The position numbers were made by a program, and so were the translations under genes. From Escherichia coli (GTDB lineage Bacteria; Pseudomonadota; Gammaproteobacteria; Enterobacterales; Enterobacteriaceae), in NCBI RefSeq assembly GCF_003334305.1, contig NZ_QOWS01000018.1: a DNA stretch of 64,000 nucleotides; one strand, 5' to 3'. Shown here one piece after another: positions 50,694 through 58,388 of this stretch. The notes beneath the pieces are model-generated. The model made no database searches. It was not told the DNA's origin and saw only the letters and a program-made list of their open reading frames with translations. The stretch's first letter is position 1; each line of letters opens with the position of its first letter.

Positions 50694-50744
50694 ATCATTG
50701 TTCTCCTGTTCAATGAACCACTTAGATAAGCATAGTCCGAAGAT

Positions 50745-52388
50745 ATGAAGCTGCTAGTGACATACATCAGGTGGAGTACTAAAGAGCAAGACTCAGGAGA
50801 CTCCTTAAGACGACAAACAAACCTCATTGATGCTTTCTACTCTAAGCACAAAAACGATTATTACCTTCTTCCTGCTCACAGATACGTTGATAAGGGTAAA
50901 TCTGGTTTTCACCAGCAACATAAGAATCAAGGTTCTGACTTCAGACGTATGTTTGAAAATGTTATGTCTGGGGCTATTCCAGAAGGTTCCCTGATTGTTG
51001 TAGAGAACTTTGACCGCTTCAGTAGGGCTGATATCGACACAGCTATAGATGATGTCAGGCAGATACTGAGGAAGGGAGTCTCTATACTGACTCTGGGAGA
51101 TGGTGAACTCTACGACAAGTCAGCATTAACAGACCCTGTGAAGCTGATTAAGCACATCATCATAGCTGAGCGAGCACATCAGGAATCTCTTGTTAAACAA
51201 AAGCGTATAGCTCAGGTCTGGAACCATAAAACACAGCTTGCAAGAGAACTTAAGAAGCCTATGGGTAAGCAAGCCCCCGGATGGTTAGAGCTATCAGAAG
51301 ACGGTTCACACTACATCGTTGATGAAGATAAAGCGTCACTGGTGAATATCATCTATGACAAGCGTCTTTCTGGTATGTCGATGTTTGCTATCTGCAAATG
51401 GCTAAACGAACAAGGTTACCCGACCATTAATCAGCGTAAGGTCAGAATATCCAAGACTAAGAAACCGGATGGTAACTGGTCAGCTTTAAGCGTTAAACAC
51501 ATCCTGACTTCACGAAGTGTATTAGGTTACCTTCCCGCTAAGATTTCTACAGAAGACCGTAAAACAGTGTTACGTGAAGAAATTGAAGGGTTCTATCCTC
51601 AGATTGTCACAGATTCTAAGTTTTACGCTGTACAGCAACTGTTAGAGGAAACAGGGAAGGGGAAAACATCCAGCGGTGACCACTGGTTATACGTGAACAT
51701 ACTGAAGGGGCTTATCCGTTGTAAGTGTGGGCTTGTAATGACTCCTACAGGGATACGTAAACCCGTTTATCAAGGTACTTACCGTTGCAATGGTAATAAG
51801 GAGTCCCGTTGTAGCTACGGTACAGTGTCCAGAAAGTTACTTGATACACAGCTTTGTAGTCGTCTGTTTAGCAAACTGTCACAGCTACACGATGAAGCTA
51901 CCGATACAGCTAAATTAGATGAACTACAAAGAAGATTAAACACCGTTGATGGTGAACTGGAAAAACTCACTGAGACGCTGATACAGCTTCCTAACATCAC
52001 TCAGATTCAAGAAGCACTACGGGTTAAACAGGAAGAAAAAGATGAACTGATAGTTCAGTTATCACGAGAAAAGGCGAGGGTAAAATCTGTATCAAGCTTG
52101 GATTTAAGCGGTCTTGATATGGAGTCTGTAGAGGGGAGAACTGAAGCCCAGATTATCATTAAGCGTCTGGTGAAAGAGATTGTTGTTTCTGGTAATGAAA
52201 AGCTGGTGGATATATATCTTCACAATGGAAATATGATTCGTGGTTTCCCTCTTGATGGTAAAGATGACCACACCTTAACGCTTGAAGAAGCAACCGATGA
52301 GATGCAGTCACTAGATGATATGCTTATTTTTGGTGAACCAGTAACAAGGATTTATCCTGCTGGTGATATGGAAGAGGTGGACGCTTAG
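50745..52388 (+). CDS. Large serine recombinase (integrase), 547 aa
   Basis: N-terminal resolvase catalytic motif YIRWSTKEQ, central recombinase region, Cys-rich zinc-ribbon (CKCGLV...CNGNKESRC) and coiled coil; lies next to the junction. Confidence 0.85.
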
Positions 52389-53173
52389 TATTTTTTATTA
52401 GGGTTCACTGAGTACTTTTTAAGCTTTGAAGCTACTCGACCAGCGTTACTATTAGCATTGGTGACGTTGGTTTTTTCAGCTTCTGTTAAGTCTGAATAGT
52501 CCAGCTTCCAAGCCTTATTACACTTAATCTGAGCATCGAGAATATCATTTCTGATAGCTGGAGCGTAACCGGATACATCGCTAATACTCATTAGCTCTTT
52601 GCACGATAGCATAGGCGCGTTATTGCGTTCAGTGGTCACGTTACCTGCATTCTTCTTACTGGTCACACCACCATCATTCGTAGTCGCGGCTTTTCCAGTT
52701 GCAGCCGAGATATCAGTCTGCCCCACAACAGCTTTGAAGTTAATTTCCTGAAAAGTTAGTTGGATTCTTAATCCGTTTGAAATTCCAACATCTTTAGAGG
52801 CTTTAAAACTTGTGATAATGGAATCATCAATTTTAATTCCGTCTTTACAGATGACAGAAATAATCTGCTTCTGGTCACGCCAGTTTTCCAGAGTGTCAAT
52901 GAAGTTCTCTACTAATTGACCCTGACGAGTTAATAGTAAGCTTCCTTCATAACCAACTACAACGACACCACTGATAGTGATTGTTCTGGGTGCTCTTTGA
53001 ACATTATCTGTGACGGTTTGCCCTGATTGCATGTTCTGTGTAGTCACCTGCATAGGGCTATCAAATTCCATATTTTCAGTTGCTGATAAGGTTAAGAAGG
53101 CATCTACATTATCTCTTAAGTGGAAGTAAACGCCATCTTTGCCACTGTAGCGGATTTGATTGCTAAAAATCAT
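52385..53173 (-). CDS. Hypothetical protein (262 aa), downstream of the tape-measure-like gene; own copy of a shared promoter cassette
   Basis: Track ORF 52385..53194 (TTG); I prefer ATG at 53173 preceded by AAAGGAG; no recognizable motif; position would suit a distal tail protein but unproven. Confidence 0.6.
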
Positions 53174-53253
53174 TAAATTCTCCTTTGATTTCAAAGGCTT
53201 AGTGTATTTTAATCATTTTTAACCAAGCCTTTGATATATAAGTATTTTCTCTG

Positions 53254-53322
53254 TTAAGCGTGAGCTACGTAAATTCTATTTTTCAGTGCGGGTATTAACT
53301 TTGCTTTATTCACGTAGAACAC
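53254..53322 (-). promoter_or_regulatory. Promoter/5'-UTR cassette copy 1 (about 70 bp, repeated at 55517-55585)
   Basis: 34-bp identical core TAAGCGTGAGCTACGTAAATTCTATTTTTCAGTG plus flanks; contains inverted CTACGTAAA/TTCACGTAG. Confidence 0.55.
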
Positions 53323-53329
53323 CGTTAAA

Positions 53330-55498
53330 TCAATCATCTTCTGGGAATGATGAACTTAATAACGTAGCTTCTGCATATTGGTCGTAGATATTACTGCTAA
53401 AGGTCATAAAGCTGGTTTCATCTGGTTTAATGGCAACTTCACCACCAAGTGAAACTTTCACAGGCTCCTGAATACGCTTACTTAAAGCAGAGATTTCATC
53501 CCTCAGACCCTGAATATCTGCACTCGTTAATGCTGAATCTTGCTTAATGTTGTTTAATTCTGGATGATTGAATCTTGCAATATTCATTGTGGCATTGTTA
53601 AACAATTCACCCATTGAACTAAAAATTCTACTCCATCCTTCGTTAATCACATTCGGTTTATTAGGGTCACCAGAATACACAGGATTAAAGTCACTACCCA
53701 CACCTACCCCAGATGGATGCATATTAGCGTTTTTGACTACTTCCTGATTCATAAAATCCAGTGCTTTCTTCAATGCATATAAACCAAGAGTGACACCTCT
53801 GATTTGTGGAATCATTGAAGCTAATGCTAACGCTGTTTCATAACCGTCATCAGCATAACCAATTGCAAGAGCACTACCTACACCACCAGCTACACCTTTC
53901 AGTTTTCCACCACCTTTACCAGTAGCTACCTGACCAGCCACCTGATTAGCTCTTGTACCTAACGTTGTGATTGCTCTTGTCAGGTTCATAACCCCTGTAG
54001 TAGCACTGAATAGTGTCTTTGCAGATAACGCTATAGCAAGACCTTTGACGAAGTTGATAAATCCATCACCGACTTCATCAAGTAGCTTTCGCTTAGTGTC
54101 ATCAAGGCTGTAATAGGTCTTCTTAATCTGTAGAATCCAGCCTTCAAGGTGATTGTTAAAGATACGGATGTCATCTACACCAGCTTTAAGCATGTCGATA
54201 AGTCCACCGATAGCATCACCAGCGATAGAAGAACTCATACCCATTTCACTAAGCAGGTTACTCAGGCTGGATAAGAAGCCATTTAGCTCATCCTGTGAAC
54301 CTGAGAAGATTTTCACCATCGTATCATCCCAGTTGTTAGCCAGTTTCCCTAAAGCTGTCTGAGTGCTCTTAGCGACTTCAGCCCAGCCACCCGCTTTATC
54401 AATCATCAAGCCCATCTGTTTAGCGACTTTAGGGAGAGTATCACTACTTAAAATCTTCCCGTCTTTCATCGCTTTATCAAGCTCTGTAGCAGTCATACCC
54501 AGTGCTTCAGCGAATAGCTTAAATGCACCAGCCATACGGTCACCTAACTGACCACGAAGCTCTTCAGCCTGAATCTTGCCCTTGCTCGCCATCTGCTCAA
54601 ATGCTTTCAAAATGCCGTTTAGCTCATCGTTAGAAAGCCCCATTAAGCGACTCATAGCCGTTGCATTACCAAATAGCTCCTGTGTCTGTTCCTGTGACAT
54701 AGAACCCTGAGCACCTGCTGCAAACTTAGCGTAGCTTGATAGCCCTTCAGAGATATTAAGACCTGTCTTGTCTGCTAAATTTCGAATAAATACCTCAGCT
54801 TCAGATGCTTTATCACCAAGTACAAACTTAGCGGCTCTCTGTGCGGAATCTCGTTTAAGACCTGCATTCATGATGGCCTTGTAAGCGTTAAGAGCACCCA
54901 TCACAGAGTAAAATGCACCAGATAACTTGATTGCATTGCTTGCAAGATTATTAAATGCGTCGCTTGTATTGTTAATGCTGGTGGATGTATGACCTTTAGC
55001 TTTAGCAATTGCTTCTCTGACTGAAGCATTTAACTGAGTCAGCTTCTCATTGAATTTTGAAGAATCCATTGACCCAGCTTTAGCAGATAGCCCGTAAAAC
55101 TGAGATTTGATGTATTTCTGCAAAATAGGGTCAAAGCCTTTTAGCTTAGACATATTAGCTGAGTAAGCCGCTGTGATTGCTCTGTTGCCGCTAATTCGTG
55201 GCTGTCTTGGTTGTCTAAGTGGCTTTAAAGTGTCATCAATTTCCGTTTTAATCTTAAACGCTCTAGTGTTTTTAAGACGCTGCTCAATCTTGGAAACAGT
55301 TTTATCGACATTCTTTTCCATTAGTTTGAGAGAATCATTTAAAGGCGTAGGGTTAACTCTGAATGCCTTATTTAGTCGTTTCTCAATTCTTGATGCGATT
55401 TGCATCGTTTGTTTCTCGGCTTTTTCCAAGCCTTTTAAAACTTTCTGAGAGCTAAAACTTAGCTCAATCAAAAAATCATCAACTTTAAATTGTGCCAT
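53330..55498 (-). CDS. Tape-measure-like protein (722 aa), alpha-helical Ala/Gly/Ser/Leu-rich
   Basis: Track ORF; region GLSNDELNGILKAFEQMASKGKIQAEELRGQLGDRMAGAFKLFAEALGMTATELDKAMKDGKILSSD resembles phage tail tape-measure core; RBS AAGAGGTGA before ATG. Confidence 0.6.
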   Translation of the reverse strand: MAQFKVDDFLIELSFSSQKVLKGLEKAEKQTMQIASRIEKRLNKAFRVNPTPLNDSLKLMEKNVDKTVSKIEQRLKNTRAFKIKTEIDDTLKPLRQPRQPRISGNRAITAAYSANMSKLKGFDPILQKYIKSQFYGLSAKAGSMDSSKFNEKLTQLNASVREAIAKAKGHTSTSINNTSDAFNNLASNAIKLSGAFYSVMGALNAYKAIMNAGLKRDSAQRAAKFVLGDKASEAEVFIRNLADKTGLNISEGLSSYAKFAAGAQGSMSQEQTQELFGNATAMSRLMGLSNDELNGILKAFEQMASKGKIQAEELRGQLGDRMAGAFKLFAEALGMTATELDKAMKDGKILSSDTLPKVAKQMGLMIDKAGGWAEVAKSTQTALGKLANNWDDTMVKIFSGSQDELNGFLSSLSNLLSEMGMSSSIAGDAIGGLIDMLKAGVDDIRIFNNHLEGWILQIKKTYYSLDDTKRKLLDEVGDGFINFVKGLAIALSAKTLFSATTGVMNLTRAITTLGTRANQVAGQVATGKGGGKLKGVAGGVGSALAIGYADDGYETALALASMIPQIRGVTLGLYALKKALDFMNQEVVKNANMHPSGVGVGSDFNPVYSGDPNKPNVINEGWSRIFSSMGELFNNATMNIARFNHPELNNIKQDSALTSADIQGLRDEISALSKRIQEPVKVSLGGEVAIKPDETSFMTFSSNIYDQYAEATLLSSSFPEDD

Positions 55499-55516
55499 TG
55501 TTCATATTTCACCTCT

Positions 55517-55585
55517 TTAAGCGTGAGCTACGTAAATTCTATTTTTCAGTGTGGGTATTAGCTTTACAGATTTCACGTAGCACAC
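55517..55585 (-). promoter_or_regulatory. Promoter/5'-UTR cassette copy 2
   Basis: Same repeat as 53254-53322, immediately upstream of the 722-aa gene. Confidence 0.55.
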
Positions 55586-55699
55586 ATAGGATTCGATAGA
55601 AGACTATCTCATATACAAAAAAGGAGAGTTACCGATGTCACTCGATAATCTCTCCCGTAGATTTTTACCCAACCAATTCTATTAGAAGCTAATCTCAAA

Positions 55700-55915
55700 T
55701 TAATGGTAAACGTAAGAATACATCCCATCATCACCTAAAATCTGTGCGTCACATGGTAATTTATCTAAGCACCATGAAGGAATCTTACGTACCTTTGGTT
55801 TATGTGAGGTGATAACTTGATGCTGATTTTTAATTCGTAGCTTTGGTTTAGTCTGAAGCTTTAAGTTCTCACAAACAGACTTAATAAGTTCATAGCGTTC
55901 TGTTAAATCAATCAT
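55700..55915 (-). CDS. Hypothetical protein (71 aa)
   Basis: Track ORF; 23 nt downstream of the 236-aa gene. Confidence 0.45.
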   Translation of the reverse strand: MIDLTERYELIKSVCENLKLQTKPKLRIKNQHQVITSHKPKVRKIPSWCLDKLPCDAQILGDDGMYSYVYH

Positions 55916-55938
55916 TCACCACCTCTTTTAATTCATAG

Positions 55939-56649
55939 TTAAAGTGCCTTGCTATATTTCTGAGAAATCTTCACTAACTGCTCAATATCAGCCTGCATAG
56001 CAATCTTCTTCTGCGTTTCATATGCAGAAATAAGCTCTTTCATAGCCTGAAGCTCTCTTGAGAGATACAACTTAACATTTTCAAGTTGCTTGTTACGTGA
56101 TGCCAAGATGTTCTGTCTGGCAAGTTCAGCGAGTTCTTCATCGCTCTTATTAGTCGTGTAAATAAACTGACCAGCACCCCTTGAAGCTTTAACCATCTTC
56201 ACAATTCGATATCCAGCAGGAAGACTACTAATCACGGCTGCGACGTTTTCTTGAAAAGTACCAAAACCATCATTGTCTTCGTATGTGAAGTAAACATACG
56301 GCTTCTGTGACAATTCATCCTGAATCTCAAATTCTGACGGCTCAATAGCTGATTGCATCAGGGTAACTTTACTGTAAGCATCATCTAGTTTAATACGCTG
56401 TGCTTTTAGCAGTGGGTAATATTCACGCTCAAGCTCAAGTAATGCTTCAGTTTTGCATACATCAGGCATCTCTTGAGGCTCAGGAGACACAAAGATGATT
56501 TCCTTTGGTGACATTCGGATTTCTTGCTCAAGCTTAATTCTTTCATCGTGTTCTTTACGCTGAATAGCGATAGCTGGATGTTCAGTCTGTGGCGACCAGT
56601 CACCGAAGCTATCAATCACTTTGCCATTAATGTAAATATCATTTGTCAT
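55939..56649 (-). CDS. Hypothetical protein (236 aa)
   Basis: Track ORF; no recognizable motif; downstream of a consensus promoter with about 350-nt leader. Confidence 0.6.
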   Translation of the reverse strand: MTNDIYINGKVIDSFGDWSPQTEHPAIAIQRKEHDERIKLEQEIRMSPKEIIFVSPEPQEMPDVCKTEALLELEREYYPLLKAQRIKLDDAYSKVTLMQSAIEPSEFEIQDELSQKPYVYFTYEDNDGFGTFQENVAAVISSLPAGYRIVKMVKASRGAGQFIYTTNKSDEELAELARQNILASRNKQLENVKLYLSRELQAMKELISAYETQKKIAMQADIEQLVKISQKYSKAL

Positions 56650-57008
56650 TGTTTTTTCCTCTTCTAAGCTAAAGTATTTCAGTTTTTAAAAAGCACACCT
56701 GACAGCCTATCTAAACTTAGAAGAGACTTAAAAGGCGGTTTGCCAAGTATGCTTTTTAAAAGCTGAAAAAGCCCTAGATAACTAAAACGCTATAAAGGGC
56801 TAAGGTGAAGAAATTAAAACATCTAAAGGATTCAATAACGAATGAACAAAGACTTTTCGAGATAGCCTCTCAGGTTGTATAAGAGGCCATGTAGCGAAAA
56901 GCATTGCACCTTTCAGAATGTTCGGTATAGAACATACCTCACCAACTCAGAATATCCATCCATCGGATTATTGAAATAAATAAGAGAGAAATTCTCTCTA
57001 TAATTAAA

Positions 57009-57037
57009 ATTATGTCATGCTTAAGGTTATTTGTCAA
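57009..57037 (-). promoter_or_regulatory. Near-consensus sigma70 promoter (TTGACA-17-CATAAT) reading toward the 236-aa gene
   Basis: Minus strand: TTGACA at 57032-57037, CATAAT at 57009-57014; palindrome AGAGAG-N5-CTCTCT at 56983-56999 near +1. Confidence 0.6.
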
Positions 57038-57062
57038 CAGCTTTTTAACAGATTGGTAACAT

Positions 57063-57128
57063 TTATACTTTAATAGATGCACCTGCAATCATACCAATCA
57101 ACACAAAACAGAGAATCACCAATTCCAT
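57063..57128 (-). CDS. Candidate 21-aa hydrophobic peptide, translationally coupled (TAATG) to the upstream 107-aa gene
   Basis: MELVILCFVLIGMIAGASIKV; ATG overlaps the preceding stop; not in track (too short). Confidence 0.25.
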   Translation of the reverse strand: MELVILCFVLIGMIAGASIKV

Positions 57129-57451
57129 TAATGCACCACCTTCGAATCCGTAACCAGAATATTATCGCTGTACAAAATTGCTATAGCCGCCTTGAGATAT
57201 TTTTCAGGGCTAACGCTGTATTTGTTCGTTTGCTCGACAACCAATCTTTTCATGTTGCTGTCTTTAATTGGTAGCATCATTCGAGGCTCGTTAAACTCCA
57301 CCGACTGAATAAAGTCAGAGATGCTTTCCGCATTATCAGTCATTAACTCTAACAACTTATCAAAGTCAATGCTAACACCTACATCAGTGAAAGCCTGAAT
57401 CATCATGGCGGTGTCGGTATCAATAAAAATCTGTAATTCGTAATTGTTCAT
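57128..57451 (-). CDS. Hypothetical protein (107 aa)
   Basis: Track ORF 57128..57484; I prefer ATG at 57451 preceded by AAGGAG-9nt. Confidence 0.55.
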   Translation of the reverse strand: MNNYELQIFIDTDTAMMIQAFTDVGVSIDFDKLLELMTDNAESISDFIQSVEFNEPRMMLPIKDSNMKRLVVEQTNKYSVSPEKYLKAAIAILYSDNILVTDSKVVH

Positions 57452-57606
57452 TTTTAAAATCTCCTTTTTACCAGACCTCCTCAATCGCTCTGTAACGAGC
57501 TAAACAGTCTTTTTCAGGGGTAGCCTGTACAGTGGTATTACCCACCCTAAAATAAGATAGTTTTTTGCGTCAGAATGCGATTGAGAGCGTCTGAGAAGCT
57601 GTTTTT

Positions 57607-57894
57607 CTAATTTCTCTTAAAGTCTCGGACTTGCATAAGATTTTTTGGTCTGGTATCGGCTCTGTTACCATTTCGATGGATAATTTGCTTGTTGGATTGA
57701 TAGCCATGATAAAGAAACCAGACAACATATTTCACGTAGAAAGTATATCGGCCTATATTAAATGTTTTGTTGCCGTAGTCGTCGGTGTTTATCGTGACTG
57801 ACTCTCCATCAGACCAGCACAGGGAATCACTGGATTCATCATAGATAAGGTGTTCTGCAAAATATCTTCTAACATCTTCATTCCAAGGTTTCAT
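57607..57894 (-). CDS. HNH endonuclease-like protein (95 aa)
   Basis: KYVVWFLYHGYQSNKQIIHRNGNRADTRPKNL matches the HNH_3-type pattern; ATGA overlap with upstream ORF. Confidence 0.65.
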   Translation of the reverse strand: MKPWNEDVRRYFAEHLIYDESSDSLCWSDGESVTINTDDYGNKTFNIGRYTFYVKYVVWFLYHGYQSNKQIIHRNGNRADTRPKNLMQVRDFKRN

Positions 57895-58106
57895 AAAACC
57901 TCCTCACCCCAATAACCTAATTCAATCTTGTGACGCTCAAACCATTCCGGTTTAACTGCTGTTTTCAGTACTTCATTTGGGCCAATGGCTTTAATGAAAA
58001 TATCTTTTGAGTTATGGATGTCACCGAATCCGTTTCCTTCAATCAGGAGGTCGGAGATGTAGCGAATCATTTTATCCGTGTGGTATTCAAAGGTAACGCA
58101 TAGCAT
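57891..58106 (-). CDS. Hypothetical protein (71 aa)
   Basis: Track ORF; coupled between the RHH-like and HNH genes. Confidence 0.5.
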   Translation of the reverse strand: MLCVTFEYHTDKMIRYISDLLIEGNGFGDIHNSKDIFIKAIGPNEVLKTAVKPEWFERHKIELGYWGEEVL

Positions 58107-58387
58107 TAAACCTCCAGAGACAGCTTGTGAATCTTAAGACTCAATAGACGGGCAATATCAATTTTAAAGCCGTTAAGTCCCTTCAAAGTATCTAAAGCGT
58201 CCTGAGTAATTCGGATGTGTTTACGACCTTTAGAGACTGGATATTTAAGTAAATCCGACTCAGTAACCTCTTTAGCAATTGCAAGCTGCATAACAGTCTG
58301 ATGAGGTAAGTTAGTAGCTCGTTTAATTCTGGCAAGCTCGTTAAAAGCTTCCTCTGAAATGCGGGTTAAAGTGTGTTTGTTTTTCAT
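58106..58387 (-). CDS. Ribbon-helix-helix-like small DNA-binding protein (93 aa)
   Basis: N-terminal TLTRISEEAFNELARIKRATNLPHQTVMQLAI resembles RHH (CopG/Arc) fold pattern. Confidence 0.5.
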   Translation of the reverse strand: MKNKHTLTRISEEAFNELARIKRATNLPHQTVMQLAIAKEVTESDLLKYPVSKGRKHIRITQDALDTLKGLNGFKIDIARLLSLKIHKLSLEV

Positions 58388-58388
58388 T

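Follow-up and report, generated by a model that had tools for sequence, protein, structure and literature searches.

A conserved cassette with inverted arms precedes two tail genes in an Escherichia coli island and recurs at other loci across Gammaproteobacteria

The window analysed here, a 64-kb stretch of E. coli A7 DNA, contains an island that runs from a large serine recombinase gene (50745-52388) to a small recombinase gene (61542-62093). The earlier note had assumed the context of a phage tail operon; instead, the two repeat copies that it described lie in an integrated island of approximately 12 kb with only two tail genes. The relevant features are as follows.

50700-62610 (approximate), no strand: ~12-kb low-GC island inserted in wrbA, from the large serine to the small recombinase gene
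52385-53173, minus: Dit-like 'baseplate' protein gene, 262 aa (phrog_3721; PF21821 Dit_like; 76% amino acid identity to Felixounavirus)
53192-53233, minus: hairpin in the Dit-like 5' leader, CAAAGGCTTGG...CTAAGCCTTTG; conserved, MFE -21 kcal/mol, z = -3.6
53254-53322, minus: cassette copy 1, 3' of the tape-measure stop codon and 5' of the Dit-like gene; present in 26/26 islands
53265-53273, minus: gene-proximal arm of copy 1, TTTACGTAG (motif search and cassette comparison)
53273-53278, minus: -10-like hexamer TAGAAT of copy 1, adjoining the proximal arm (cassette comparison)
53309-53317, minus: gene-distal arm of copy 1, CTACGTGAA (motif search and cassette comparison)
53330-55498, minus: tape-measure protein gene, 722 aa, with a cassette on each side (phrog_4036, TIGR02675; similar to the Felixounavirus tape-measure protein)
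55517-55585, minus: cassette copy 2, 5' of the tape-measure gene (repeat search and island alignments)
55528-55536, minus: gene-proximal arm of copy 2, TTTACGTAG (motif search and cassette comparison)
55536-55541, minus: -10-like hexamer TAGAAT of copy 2, adjoining the proximal arm; putative promoter role
55572-55580, minus: gene-distal arm of copy 2, CTACGTGAA; invariant across all cassettes
55617-55656, minus: intrinsic terminator GGGAGAG...CTCTCC followed by TTTTTTG, which ends the 71-aa gene and lies shortly before copy 2
62290-62298, minus: solitary third arm of the distal type, CTACGTGAA, ~310 nt inwards from the island's right end

A repeat search of the window confirmed the two copies of about 70 bp as a direct repeat (53254-53322 and 55517-55585) of 69 nt with 88% identity, the second in length among the repeats of the 64 kb. 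The identical core also exists, but it comprises the first 35 nt and not 34 as claimed. Both members of the inverted pair were located in each copy: on the plus strand, CTACGTAAA lies at 53265-53273 (copy 1) and 55528-55536 (copy 2), and TTCACGTAG at 53309-53317 and 55572-55580, respectively. The coding (minus) strand of each copy reads CTACGTGAA-N36-TTACGTAG; in copy 2, the longer arms GCTACGTGAA-N36-TTACGTAGC are followed by CTCACGCTTAA and the ribosome-binding site (RBS) AGAGGTG. The TAGAAT element was found on the minus strand of both copies, abutting the gene-proximal arm. Since both genes are on the minus strand, copy 2 is upstream of the 722-aa gene. The earlier note had placed each copy directly upstream of its gene with a strong RBS, which holds for copy 2, where AGAGGTG follows within ~12 nt, but not for copy 1, which ends ~80 nt before its gene's start (ATG at 53173) with a second conserved hairpin in between. 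The arm-to-ATG distances are 29 nt for the tape-measure gene and 91 nt for the Dit-like gene. The 9-mer TTCACGTAG alone was not enriched in the window (17 matches with at most one mismatch versus 11.3 expected). Its recurrence near 62291 was recovered at 62290-62298, upstream of the small serine recombinase gene, as a solitary arm conserved in position in related islands.

In virulent Felix-O1-like phages, the homologues of the two tail genes are adjacent and overlapping, with no intergenic cassette, and therefore the separate control points represent a derived feature of the island. We compared 26 related islands, which appear to form an uncharacterised Felix-O1-related family present in ~8% of complete E. 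coli genomes; searches for the 236-aa and 184-aa island proteins in Pfam or PHROG and for the 71-aa protein in PHROG or NCBIfam gave no match, a peptide-pattern scan of genome contigs with the Dit-like protein gave no relative, and literature searches on a Felix-O1 satellite or Felix O1 late promoters gave nothing relevant. The islands yielded 34 unique cassettes, whose arms are invariant and whose arm spacing is 36±1 nt in 30 of them (37-39 nt when measured from CTACGTGA to YACGTAG). The sequence of the spacer varies freely and has diverged beyond recognition, for example in Citrobacter islands, with the exception of TAnnnT by the gene-proximal arm, which adjoins it in 32 of the 34. Its forms are TAGAAT, TATTTT, TAGATT, TAGTTT and TAATTT; variation is confined to positions 3-5, with T1, A2 and T6 constant, as in a -10 hexamer. 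The variant cassette of island L006 is 10 bp shorter, the equivalent of one helical turn. All islands carry the Dit cassette and nine of the 26 are missing the tape-measure cassette, indicating that the latter gene has no strict need for it; the terminator at 55617-55656 is kept in all of them, also in those without the tape-measure cassette. In island L015, the 'up' cassette type stands at the 'ig' position and vice versa, and the cassettes at the tape-measure and Dit positions are interchangeable. Island L027 has a complete third cassette where A7 has the solitary arm; this cassette points at the 3' end of a gene in convergent orientation, which leaves it nothing to drive. The small recombinase gene is present in both orientations among islands. 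An invertible segment bounded by the arms was rejected, the blastn alignments corresponding to module replacement and not to simple inversion.

The search for the palindrome in related elements, which the earlier note had called for, found the same arms, with the same spacing, in the 26 islands and at at least 120 other loci across Gammaproteobacteria, many of them in mobile elements. For this analysis, we defined the family by inverted arms GCTACGTRAA and TYRCGTAGC, 36 (35-37) nt apart, 55 nt overall and intergenic. The loci, together with 24 viral contigs, provided 99 distinct 55-nt elements with exactly 36 nt between the arms. The arms of copy 2 fit the family consensus exactly (GCTACGTGAA...TTACGTAGC) and copy 1 has T for the first G; both A7 copies have the 36-nt spacing and an intergenic position near a gene start. 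In general, the arms GCTACGTRAAWTCTG and CAGAWTTYACGTAGC are 10-15 bp long and inverted at a fixed distance, 10-80 nt upstream of a gene start and in the gene's orientation. About half of the wide family has a gene start no more than 60 nt downstream, the distance being usually 18-60 nt, and 53 elements have an ORF of at least 100 aa starting within 60 nt. The conservation is far beyond chance, because the arms are invariant throughout the island cassettes and recur at so many unrelated loci. No neighbouring gene encoding a candidate arm-binding protein was shared across the wide-family loci listed, and a literature search with the arm sequence matched only unrelated primers.

Among the other carriers of the element are P1-like phages, IncFII plasmids and the chromosomes of Pantoea, Alteromonas and Pseudomonas, and their downstream genes are unrelated. 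This distribution bears on the idea of a helper-responsive late promoter, in which the island would be a Felix-O1-like satellite or parasite and its cassette would be read by the late activator or the modified RNA polymerase of the helper, in the way that P2 Ogr acts on the late promoters of P4. With an integrase, replication-like genes and two structural genes in ~12 kb, the island does look like a satellite, its two tail genes are homologues of adjacent Felixounavirus genes, and an activator is needed where a promoter has no -35 hexamer. However, the complete Felixounavirus genome HMD-P10, assembled for the scan and searched for the arms, the TAGAAT-arm junction, the downstream box and CCCAC...TAnnnT, contained no arm pairs and only one chance 9-mer in the capsid gene, and blastn of the cassette against 50,697 phage records gave no match; on both results, a copy of a helper-phage promoter was rejected. 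In addition, Pantoea, Alteromonas and Pseudomonas, where the element stands before unrelated genes, are not Felix-O1 hosts. We therefore regard reading by a helper phage as very unlikely.

Phage P1 (AF234172) carries the same element at nt 118-172, as GCTACGTAAAATCTG-N25-CAGATTTCGCGTAGC, 55 nt in total, and the P1-like contigs L037 and L039 have near-identical arms. The P1 element resembles that of the island in its position 34 nt before a start codon (that of cra), its 'GC(A/T)CAC..' tail and its GAGGTG RBS. It overlaps the annotated sigma-70 cre promoter P3cre (= pR1, reportedly the name that Sternberg gave in 1986 to the cra-cre promoter), whose -10 hexamer TAAAAT at nt 124-129 is within the distal arm; the AF234172 annotation marks no palindrome or operator there. 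In P1, the -35 hexamer TTGATC (a Dam site) is outside the element, whereas the island has no -35. Likewise, the distal-arm TAAAAT of P1 corresponds to TGAAAT in the island, without the key A, while the island keeps TAnnnT at the proximal arm, and therefore the P1 promoter geometry is not directly transferable. The downstream genes also differ, being a recombinase gene in P1 and tail protein genes in the island.

The earlier note had suggested, from separate identical promoters, that the two genes are regulated as independent units by a common factor. The copies are indeed a conserved unit, placed per gene in the gene's orientation and functionally constrained, but their promoter activity is a prediction. 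TAGAAT in both copies has the A at position 2 and the T at position 6 of a -10 hexamer. The -35 hexamer is absent: the sigma-70 consensus scan called no minus-strand promoter in either cassette, the -35 position in A7 reads AAGCTA and AAGTTA by eye, and TGAACA at the 18-bp distance occurs in some spacer types only. The proximal TAnnnT is homologous to the inner arm part CAGAWT of the wide family and could thus be conserved as palindrome and not as -10 hexamer. The tape-measure copy comes right after an intrinsic terminator, which makes a fresh transcription start there plausible. By eye, no consensus site for sigma-32, sigma-54, CRP, ArgR, DnaA, IHF, TyrR or MetJ was convincing; this includes a partial resemblance to sigma-32 promoters (GTGAAW-N14-CCCCTGCT versus TTGAAA-N14-CCCCATnT) and one to a DnaA box (ATACCCACA).

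Our preferred reading of these sequence comparisons, held tentatively and with somewhat less than even confidence, is that the cassette is a portable promoter-operator leader module providing self-contained transcription control. RNA polymerase would start inside the cassette, in the island at or just after the proximal arm, from a promoter without a -35 hexamer, and the two arms would be binding sites for a symmetric DNA-binding factor that switches this promoter on or off. With such a promoter and a shared arm-binding factor, the cassette would make expression of the tape-measure and Dit-like genes independent of read-through from upstream and subject both to one common signal. The RHH protein and the MTase-HTH of the island had been put forward as readers of the palindrome. 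They are unlikely candidates, since the arms occur in many unrelated elements and no homologue of an island protein was found within 4 kb of the element at other loci, and an island-encoded reader was rejected on this ground. A better match would be a factor that is encoded by the host or widely shared, or else a structural role; the arms would probably be bound by a host protein or by a protein that many mobile elements have in common.

Several known cassettes resemble the element in part. The PeSL (promoter-early stem-loop) cassettes of T4-like phages (Arbiol et al. 2010, PMC2839356) are also short composites (50-100 bp) in which a promoter, putative in the island, is coupled to an inverted repeat; they too recur directly before adjacent ORFs and end in the RBS of the downstream gene. 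PeSLs act as anchors for modular gene shuffling, and a similar exchange of modules may take place here: the cassette precedes two adjacent genes, its types have swapped positions in L015 and homology breaks at one arm. In contrast, PeSLs have full sigma-70 -35/-10 hexamers and G+C-rich terminating stems at variable positions within one phage lineage, whereas the cassette has neither a -35 nor a U-run, its A+T-rich arms are invariant with fixed spacing and it is common to several bacterial orders and mobile-element types. A terminator stem-loop of the PeSL type does not match the A+T-rich arms, the 36-nt loop and the absence of a T-run, and a separate terminator lies upstream of the cassette; the terminator scan did not call the cassette as an intrinsic terminator, CTCACGCTTAA being what follows the proximal arm. 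Among activator-dependent late promoters, the sites of P2/P4 Ogr/Delta and of Mu C and Mor combine a -10 without a -35 and a dyad protein site before structural genes, and resemble the cassette in occurring as several copies before structural genes of a small integrated element. Their dyads are compact (e.g. TGT-N12-ACA), wholly upstream and centred near -55 or -43, while the half-sites of the cassette, ~45 bp apart, bracket the presumed -10 and start site; the absence of motif copies from the candidate helper phage (Felixounavirus genome and phage records) is a further difference from Ogr/Delta-type systems. Finally, the Correia/NEMIS elements of Neisseria are miniature inverted-repeat elements carrying promoters. 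Like them, the cassette is short, bounded by inverted repeats, upstream of genes and capable of a hairpin in read-through RNA, but no target-site duplications were seen in its flanks (islands and wide family), and, whereas its length is conserved, its interior shows no conservation by descent. E. coli has the cassette at 508 places in 411 genomes, in every case together with the island, and the interiors are unrelated between contexts; a MITE or other mobile repeat was rejected on these grounds. A diversity-generating retroelement repeat pair was rejected as well, the copy differences not being adenine-specific and both copies being intergenic.

The mosaicism of the tape-measure genes raises the question of whether the palindromes are sites or hot spots of rearrangement, through a site-specific recombinase or through hairpin- or homology-based exchange; the direct repeats on either side would then make the tape-measure gene exchangeable, and any effect on expression would be secondary. 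N-terminal types of the tape-measure gene are either 46-53% or >90% identical and assort independently of the C-terminal types, spacer halves as well as entire cassettes have been reshuffled from one position to another among islands, the homology between A7 and L027 in blastn ends exactly at the third arm, and an arm plus 24 nt is shared as an exact reverse complement by L005_up and the L027 third cassette. Moreover, PeSL cassettes mediate such modular shuffling (PMC2839356), and the commonest neighbour among the wide-family loci listed is a Cre-like/tyrosine recombinase gene (31 + 8 loci). However, arms 36 bp apart do not fit the core site of a tyrosine or small serine recombinase, and a lox-like core was rejected with a spacer of 25-36 bp versus the 6-8-bp crossover spacer that such a core has between its inverted binding elements of 11-13 bp. 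At Cre-like recombinase genes, the order is lox-like site, element, gene, which makes the element a leader and not the crossover site: separate 13-8-13 lox-like sites, the ordinary 34-bp type, lie 35-170 bp from the element in six loci (L038, L044, L061, L080, L121 and P1). A 34-bp lox-like site (pox) is also what the Pantoea Cre-like recombinase Panto uses (PMC4957104). Recombinases of three families could not share one invariant site, and the same cassette is common to Citrobacter islands with tyrosine integrases and E. coli islands with serine integrases. Together with the adjoining lox-like sites, this led us to reject a recombinase crossover site. The constant orientation towards the downstream gene, the universal Dit cassette and the lack of dispersal outside islands in E. 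coli also count against a rearrangement site, which we judge distinctly improbable. Within the promoter-operator reading, the copies, as conserved repeats around a gene, would passively anchor homologous exchange of gene modules between islands.

The arms could alternatively act in RNA. In a read-through transcript they would pair into a stem of 9-15 bp with a loop of ~36 nt, serving as a processing, stability or insulation signal; the hairpin, for example as an RNase III site, would separate the tape-measure and Dit messages or set their decay and translation. No terminator separates the tape-measure gene from copy 1, and any RNA that reads through must therefore include the whole hairpin. 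The tape-measure leader folds with an MFE of -23 kcal/mol (z = -3.5) and a Citrobacter intergenic cassette with -24 kcal/mol (z = -3.0) and a perfect 14-bp stem, whereas the fold of copy 1 is no better than shuffles (z = -1.2). All three arm variants among the islands keep sense-strand pairing (G.U/G-C at one pair, with 10 G.U and 0 A.C; U.G twice in L028), the centre is self-complementary in Pseudomonas and some P1-like copies, and the Dit leader contains a second clear RNA hairpin. In the wide family, by contrast, the gene-sense strand at pair 8/48 has 8 G.U versus 13 A.C, indicating that pairing is not protected on either strand, and the centre is generally not palindromic (23% Watson-Crick, below shuffles). 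None of the 14 pairs showed compensatory double changes, and it is the sequence of the arms that is conserved, beyond their ability to pair. The loop has the same length to the nucleotide in different bacterial orders, a constraint that a hairpin loop does not need; such strict spacing is more in keeping with recognition of DNA than with an RNA loop. Transcription from the annotated P1 promoter begins within the element, and the resulting RNA is therefore without the distal arm. Rfam 15 gave no relevant match for the island (E up to 5) or ten other loci (E up to 1), and a known RNA family was rejected; the matches obtained were one tRNA and spurious miRNA hairpins. Overall, an RNA hairpin as the primary function seems unlikely.

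In its broadest form, the promoter-operator reading would describe a Gammaproteobacteria-wide cis-regulatory module not described so far, GCTACGTRAA/TTYACGTAGC exactly 36 bp apart, read by a conserved cellular factor or a structure-specific activity, which would plug genes of unrelated mobile elements into one host signal. Its users would be P1-type phage-plasmids (cre), IncF plasmids (ResD-like resolvase) and the island (two Felix-O1-derived tail genes). We put this forward as a possibility about which we are doubtful ourselves. If the arms are the operator of a conserved factor, they would constitute a new regulon-like signal across Gammaproteobacteria, by which plasmids, phage-plasmids and phage-parasitic islands would time the expression of sensitive genes, among them those for recombinases and structural proteins. 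The palindrome that is unannotated in P1, within the much-studied control region of cre, would also be accounted for. In the island, two structural genes from a virulent phage would have been rewired into separately controlled units, a step towards understanding Felix-O1-related islands.

Two minor observations concern other parts of the island. The copy of TTCACGTAG at 57731 belongs to an HNH coding sequence, where common descent accounts for its conservation. In the Dit-like leader, the 3' arm of the hairpin can alternatively pair with the Shine-Dalgarno region CCTTTGAAATCAAAGG, and the variants of this hairpin among islands keep the pairing through G.U wobble changes.

A repeat search of the window recovered the duplicated cassette of about 70 bp with an inverted pair of arms, as the earlier note had claimed. 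The copies form a 69-nt direct repeat of 88% identity (53254-53322 and 55517-55585), the second longest among the window's repeats. Their leading 35 nt were identical, so that the proposed core was real although its length had been given as 34 bp, and both copies contained CTACGTAAA and TTCACGTAG on the + strand. All genes around the cassettes are coded on the - strand, on which the cassette reads 5'-(G/T)CTACGTGAA - 36 nt - TTACGTAGC-CTCACGCTTAA, with TAGAAT as the final six bases of the 36-nt spacer. The copies are located as follows:

55517-55585, - strand: copy 2, before the 722-aa tape-measure gene, with the RBS AGAGGTG about 12 nt past the cassette
53254-53322, - strand: copy 1, 12 nt past the stop of the 722-aa gene and about 80 nt ahead of the ATG of the 262-aa Dit-like gene

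The position directly upstream of a gene and the strong RBS, previously ascribed to both copies, applied to copy 2, while copy 1 is separated from its ATG by that distance and by a second hairpin. In the leader of the Dit-like gene (- strand, 53192-53233 and 53181-53199), a conserved 11-bp hairpin retains pairing in island variants, whose changes give G.U wobbles. The 3' arm of this hairpin, CCTTTG, has an alternative pairing partner four bases downstream, in the Shine-Dalgarno region CAAAGGAG, which suggests a putative translational switch.

Both cassettes sit in an island of about 12 kb (50700-62610), inserted in wrbA and of low GC content (38-43%), whose genes include:

large serine recombinase (integrase) gene, at one end of the island
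small serine recombinase gene
Dam-type methylase and HNH protein genes
tape-measure protein gene (phrog_4036, TIGR02675)
Dit-like protein gene (phrog_3721, PF21821)

Several other island ORFs had no family match. Since the tape-measure and Dit-like genes are the only recognisable structural genes, the tail-operon setting assumed earlier had to be abandoned. Both are homologues of genes from virulent Felix-O1-like myoviruses (76% amino-acid identity for the Dit-like protein), in which they are adjacent, overlap and have no intergenic cassette. Among 5,426 complete E. coli genomes, about 470 carried a relative of the island, and relatives also turned up in E. albertii, Salmonella, Shigella and Citrobacter. 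Their integrases are of the serine type, with insertion at wrbA, at yecE or near ompW; the Citrobacter islands have a tyrosine integrase instead. The core gene order is common to all of them: 235-aa, 70-aa, tape-measure and Dit-like. No description of the family was found in the literature searched, and it has the appearance of a satellite or tail-assembly-interference island not described before. In several assemblies, among them the one with Logan contig ERR10124564_189 (locus L007; 11,887 nt), the complete island formed a contig of its own, about 11-14 kb long, with the integrase gene at one end and the Dit-like gene at the other. These could be an excised or packaged form, or merely assembly breaks.

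When 34 unique cassettes from 26 islands were compared, the arms CTACGTGA and YACGTAG were invariant except for three transitions that retained wobble pairing, and the distance between them was 37-39 nt in 30 of the 34; exceptions include one cassette shorter by 10 nt and two with a 27-nt insertion. No compensatory double change occurred at any arm pair, indicating that the arms are conserved as sequence, beyond pairing alone. The spacer was mosaic among islands, and that of a Citrobacter intergenic cassette was unrelated to the others and of the same length, its arms being lengthened to a perfect 14-bp inverted repeat. Conserved within the spacer were a CCCACAC-like box, an A5 tract and a TAnnnT hexamer, which lay against the proximal arm (the one near the downstream gene) in 32/34 cassettes as TAGAAT, TATTTT, TAGATT, TAGTTT or TAATTT. 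The Dit cassette was present in all 26 islands and the tape-measure cassette was absent from nine. A conserved intrinsic terminator (GGGAGAG...CTCTCC-T6) ends the 70-aa gene; the tape-measure cassette, where present, lies between this terminator and the RBS, which in the nine other islands follows the terminator directly. In one island (L015), the cassette types were exchanged between the two positions. Another (L027) had, close to the end of the island (around 1628-1710), a complete third cassette that faces the 3' end of the convergent small recombinase gene.

The 55-bp element is spread across Gammaproteobacteria. An IMG/VR scan with the pattern GCTACGTGAA-N(28-42)-TYACGTAGC returned the islands and eight phage or phage-plasmid contexts of 50-95 kb, and a genomic scan (N(35-37) spacer, one genome per species) gave at least 120 loci. 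The palindrome search in related elements suggested by the earlier note found copies in 26 islands, at least 120 other loci and phage P1. The genomic matches listed included Pantoea, Erwinia, Yersinia, Rahnella, Serratia, Klebsiella, Alteromonas, Colwellia, Shewanella, Pseudomonas and Azotobacter, the last with at least 10 identical copies. Among the matches listed, at least 99 distinct elements were exactly 55 nt long. In this wide family (L031, L033-L039, L041-L160 and the P1 locus L161), the arms GCTACGTRAA and TTYACGTAGC are exactly 36 bp apart and the gene-sense consensus is GCTACGT(G/A)AAWTCTG - 25 nt - CAGAWTT(C/T)ACGTAGC. The centre is in general not palindromic (23% Watson-Crick pairs, below shuffled controls) and contains a CCCTGCT motif tied to orientation. 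Again among the matches listed, a gene started within 60 nt of one arm in about half of the elements; Cre-like tyrosine recombinases ranked first (at least 31 loci), followed by ResD-like 252-aa plasmid resolvases, one on an IncFII plasmid, with Xer-like recombinases, a cupin and a LysR regulator as other neighbours. Rfam held no matching family, and a full-text literature search for the arm sequence returned unrelated primers only.

Typically, the element has a lox-like site on one side and the Cre-like recombinase gene on the other. At five loci (L038, L044, L061, L080 and L121) and in P1, ordinary 34-bp lox-like sites lay 35-170 bp past the element, away from the recombinase gene, and a Cre-like enzyme of Pantoea is known to use such a site (PMC4957104). 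The element therefore serves as the recombinase gene's leader, and a role as the recombinase crossover site was rejected. A recombination function of the island cassette is improbable: its architecture, like the separate lox-like sites, speaks against a dedicated site. The mosaic tape-measure genes, a homology breakpoint exactly at the solitary third arm (62290-62298), and an arm plus 24 nt that is the exact reverse complement in two cassettes are all compatible with passive exchange, either homologous or mediated by hairpins, of the type described for the PeSL cassettes of T4-like phages (PMC2839356). Less probable still, and unlikely, is a late promoter specific to a helper phage, because the motif was absent from a Felixounavirus genome and the element is used in unrelated hosts. 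The Felixounavirus Escherichia phage HMD-P10 (L002-L004) has its own repeated leader, AAGTCCTTAAACTAGGAGATTCAAAAATG, in 8-10 copies before genes, unrelated to the island cassette.

In phage P1 (AF234172), nt 118-172 correspond to the element, between loxP with its LexA box and cra-cre. In the record, this stretch is annotated with the sigma-70 promoter P3cre, equated with pR1 of the original cre study, and with no palindrome or operator. The promoter has its -10 (TAAAAT, nt 124-129), which falls within the distal arm, and its -35 (TTGATC), just outside the element. This annotated promoter starts transcription inside the element, which speaks against an RNA hairpin acting on read-through transcripts. 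Such a hairpin would suit the moderately stable folds and the wobble compatibility of every island arm variant on the sense strand, but it is doubtful, since covariation is lacking, the fixed loop length has no reason, and A.C mismatches exceed G.U pairs (13 versus 8) on the wide-family sense strand.

The best-supported reading, which we hold tentatively, is that the cassette may be a portable promoter-operator leader module. It draws on the fixed orientation at short distance from the downstream gene, the location directly after a terminator, the retention of T1, A2 and T6 in a hexamer whose positions 3-5 drift, the interchangeability of cassettes between the two positions and the P1 promoter annotation. 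The arms, unvarying in sequence, are spaced exactly to the nucleotide around a freely changing spacer, a combination that points to a symmetric DNA-binding factor, which would read both arms; the one shortened variant differs by a single helical turn. Each cassette would provide its gene with its own control point, in line with the separate regulation proposed for the two genes, the promoter activity being a prediction from sequence. The proposed common factor is probably not encoded by the island: no island protein recurred near the element elsewhere and the element spans bacterial orders, so that a host or widely shared protein is a more likely reader than the island RHH or HTH proteins. Weak points of the promoter-operator model are the absence of a -35 hexamer from the cassette, the degenerate P1-type -10 in the island (TGAAAT), the homology of the proximal TAnnnT to the wide-family inner arm CAGAWT, the dispensable tape-measure copy and the L027 cassette that faces no gene.

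Portable promoter/palindrome regulatory cassettes are an already described kind, of which the island cassette is a variant. The pR1/P3cre region of P1 is its closest concrete relative and the PeSL composite promoter/stem-loop cassette the closest described concept. Unlike both, it has neither a -35 hexamer nor a terminator-type stem, keeps invariant arms at fixed spacing and is spread over many kinds of mobile element.

Other features of the islands were also recorded. Seven islands (L010, L012, L013, L016, L017, L023 and L027) have an extra insert of about 90 nt between the tape-measure stop and the Dit cassette, encoding a possible 17-aa hydrophobic peptide, MLELLIFIATHGNLLIFI. A 24-nt hairpin piece beside the arm in L005 (7690-7760) and L013 is the exact reverse complement of that in L027. 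The small recombinase module occurs in both orientations (L006, L027 and L029 versus strain A7); simple inversion was rejected, as the orientations differ by module replacement. In the long non-coding stretch from the methylase gene to the 184-aa gene, two 76-nt direct repeats (59484-59559 and 59579-59654), 91% identical and starting 95 nt apart, and further short repeats (59401/60675 and 59689/59908) are possible tandem promoters or iterons of a replication origin. On the - strand at 56650-57040, a near-consensus promoter (TTGACA-17-CATAAT, 57037-57009) precedes the 236-aa gene by about 350 nt free of ORFs, including a 28-nt inverted repeat (56677-56704/56741-56768), which could form a long structured leader or a small RNA. 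Finally, at least five copies of TGAGAC/GTCTCA (62100-62230, - strand) lie around the promoter predicted for the small serine recombinase gene, in an arrangement that resembles a putative res-type or operator array.
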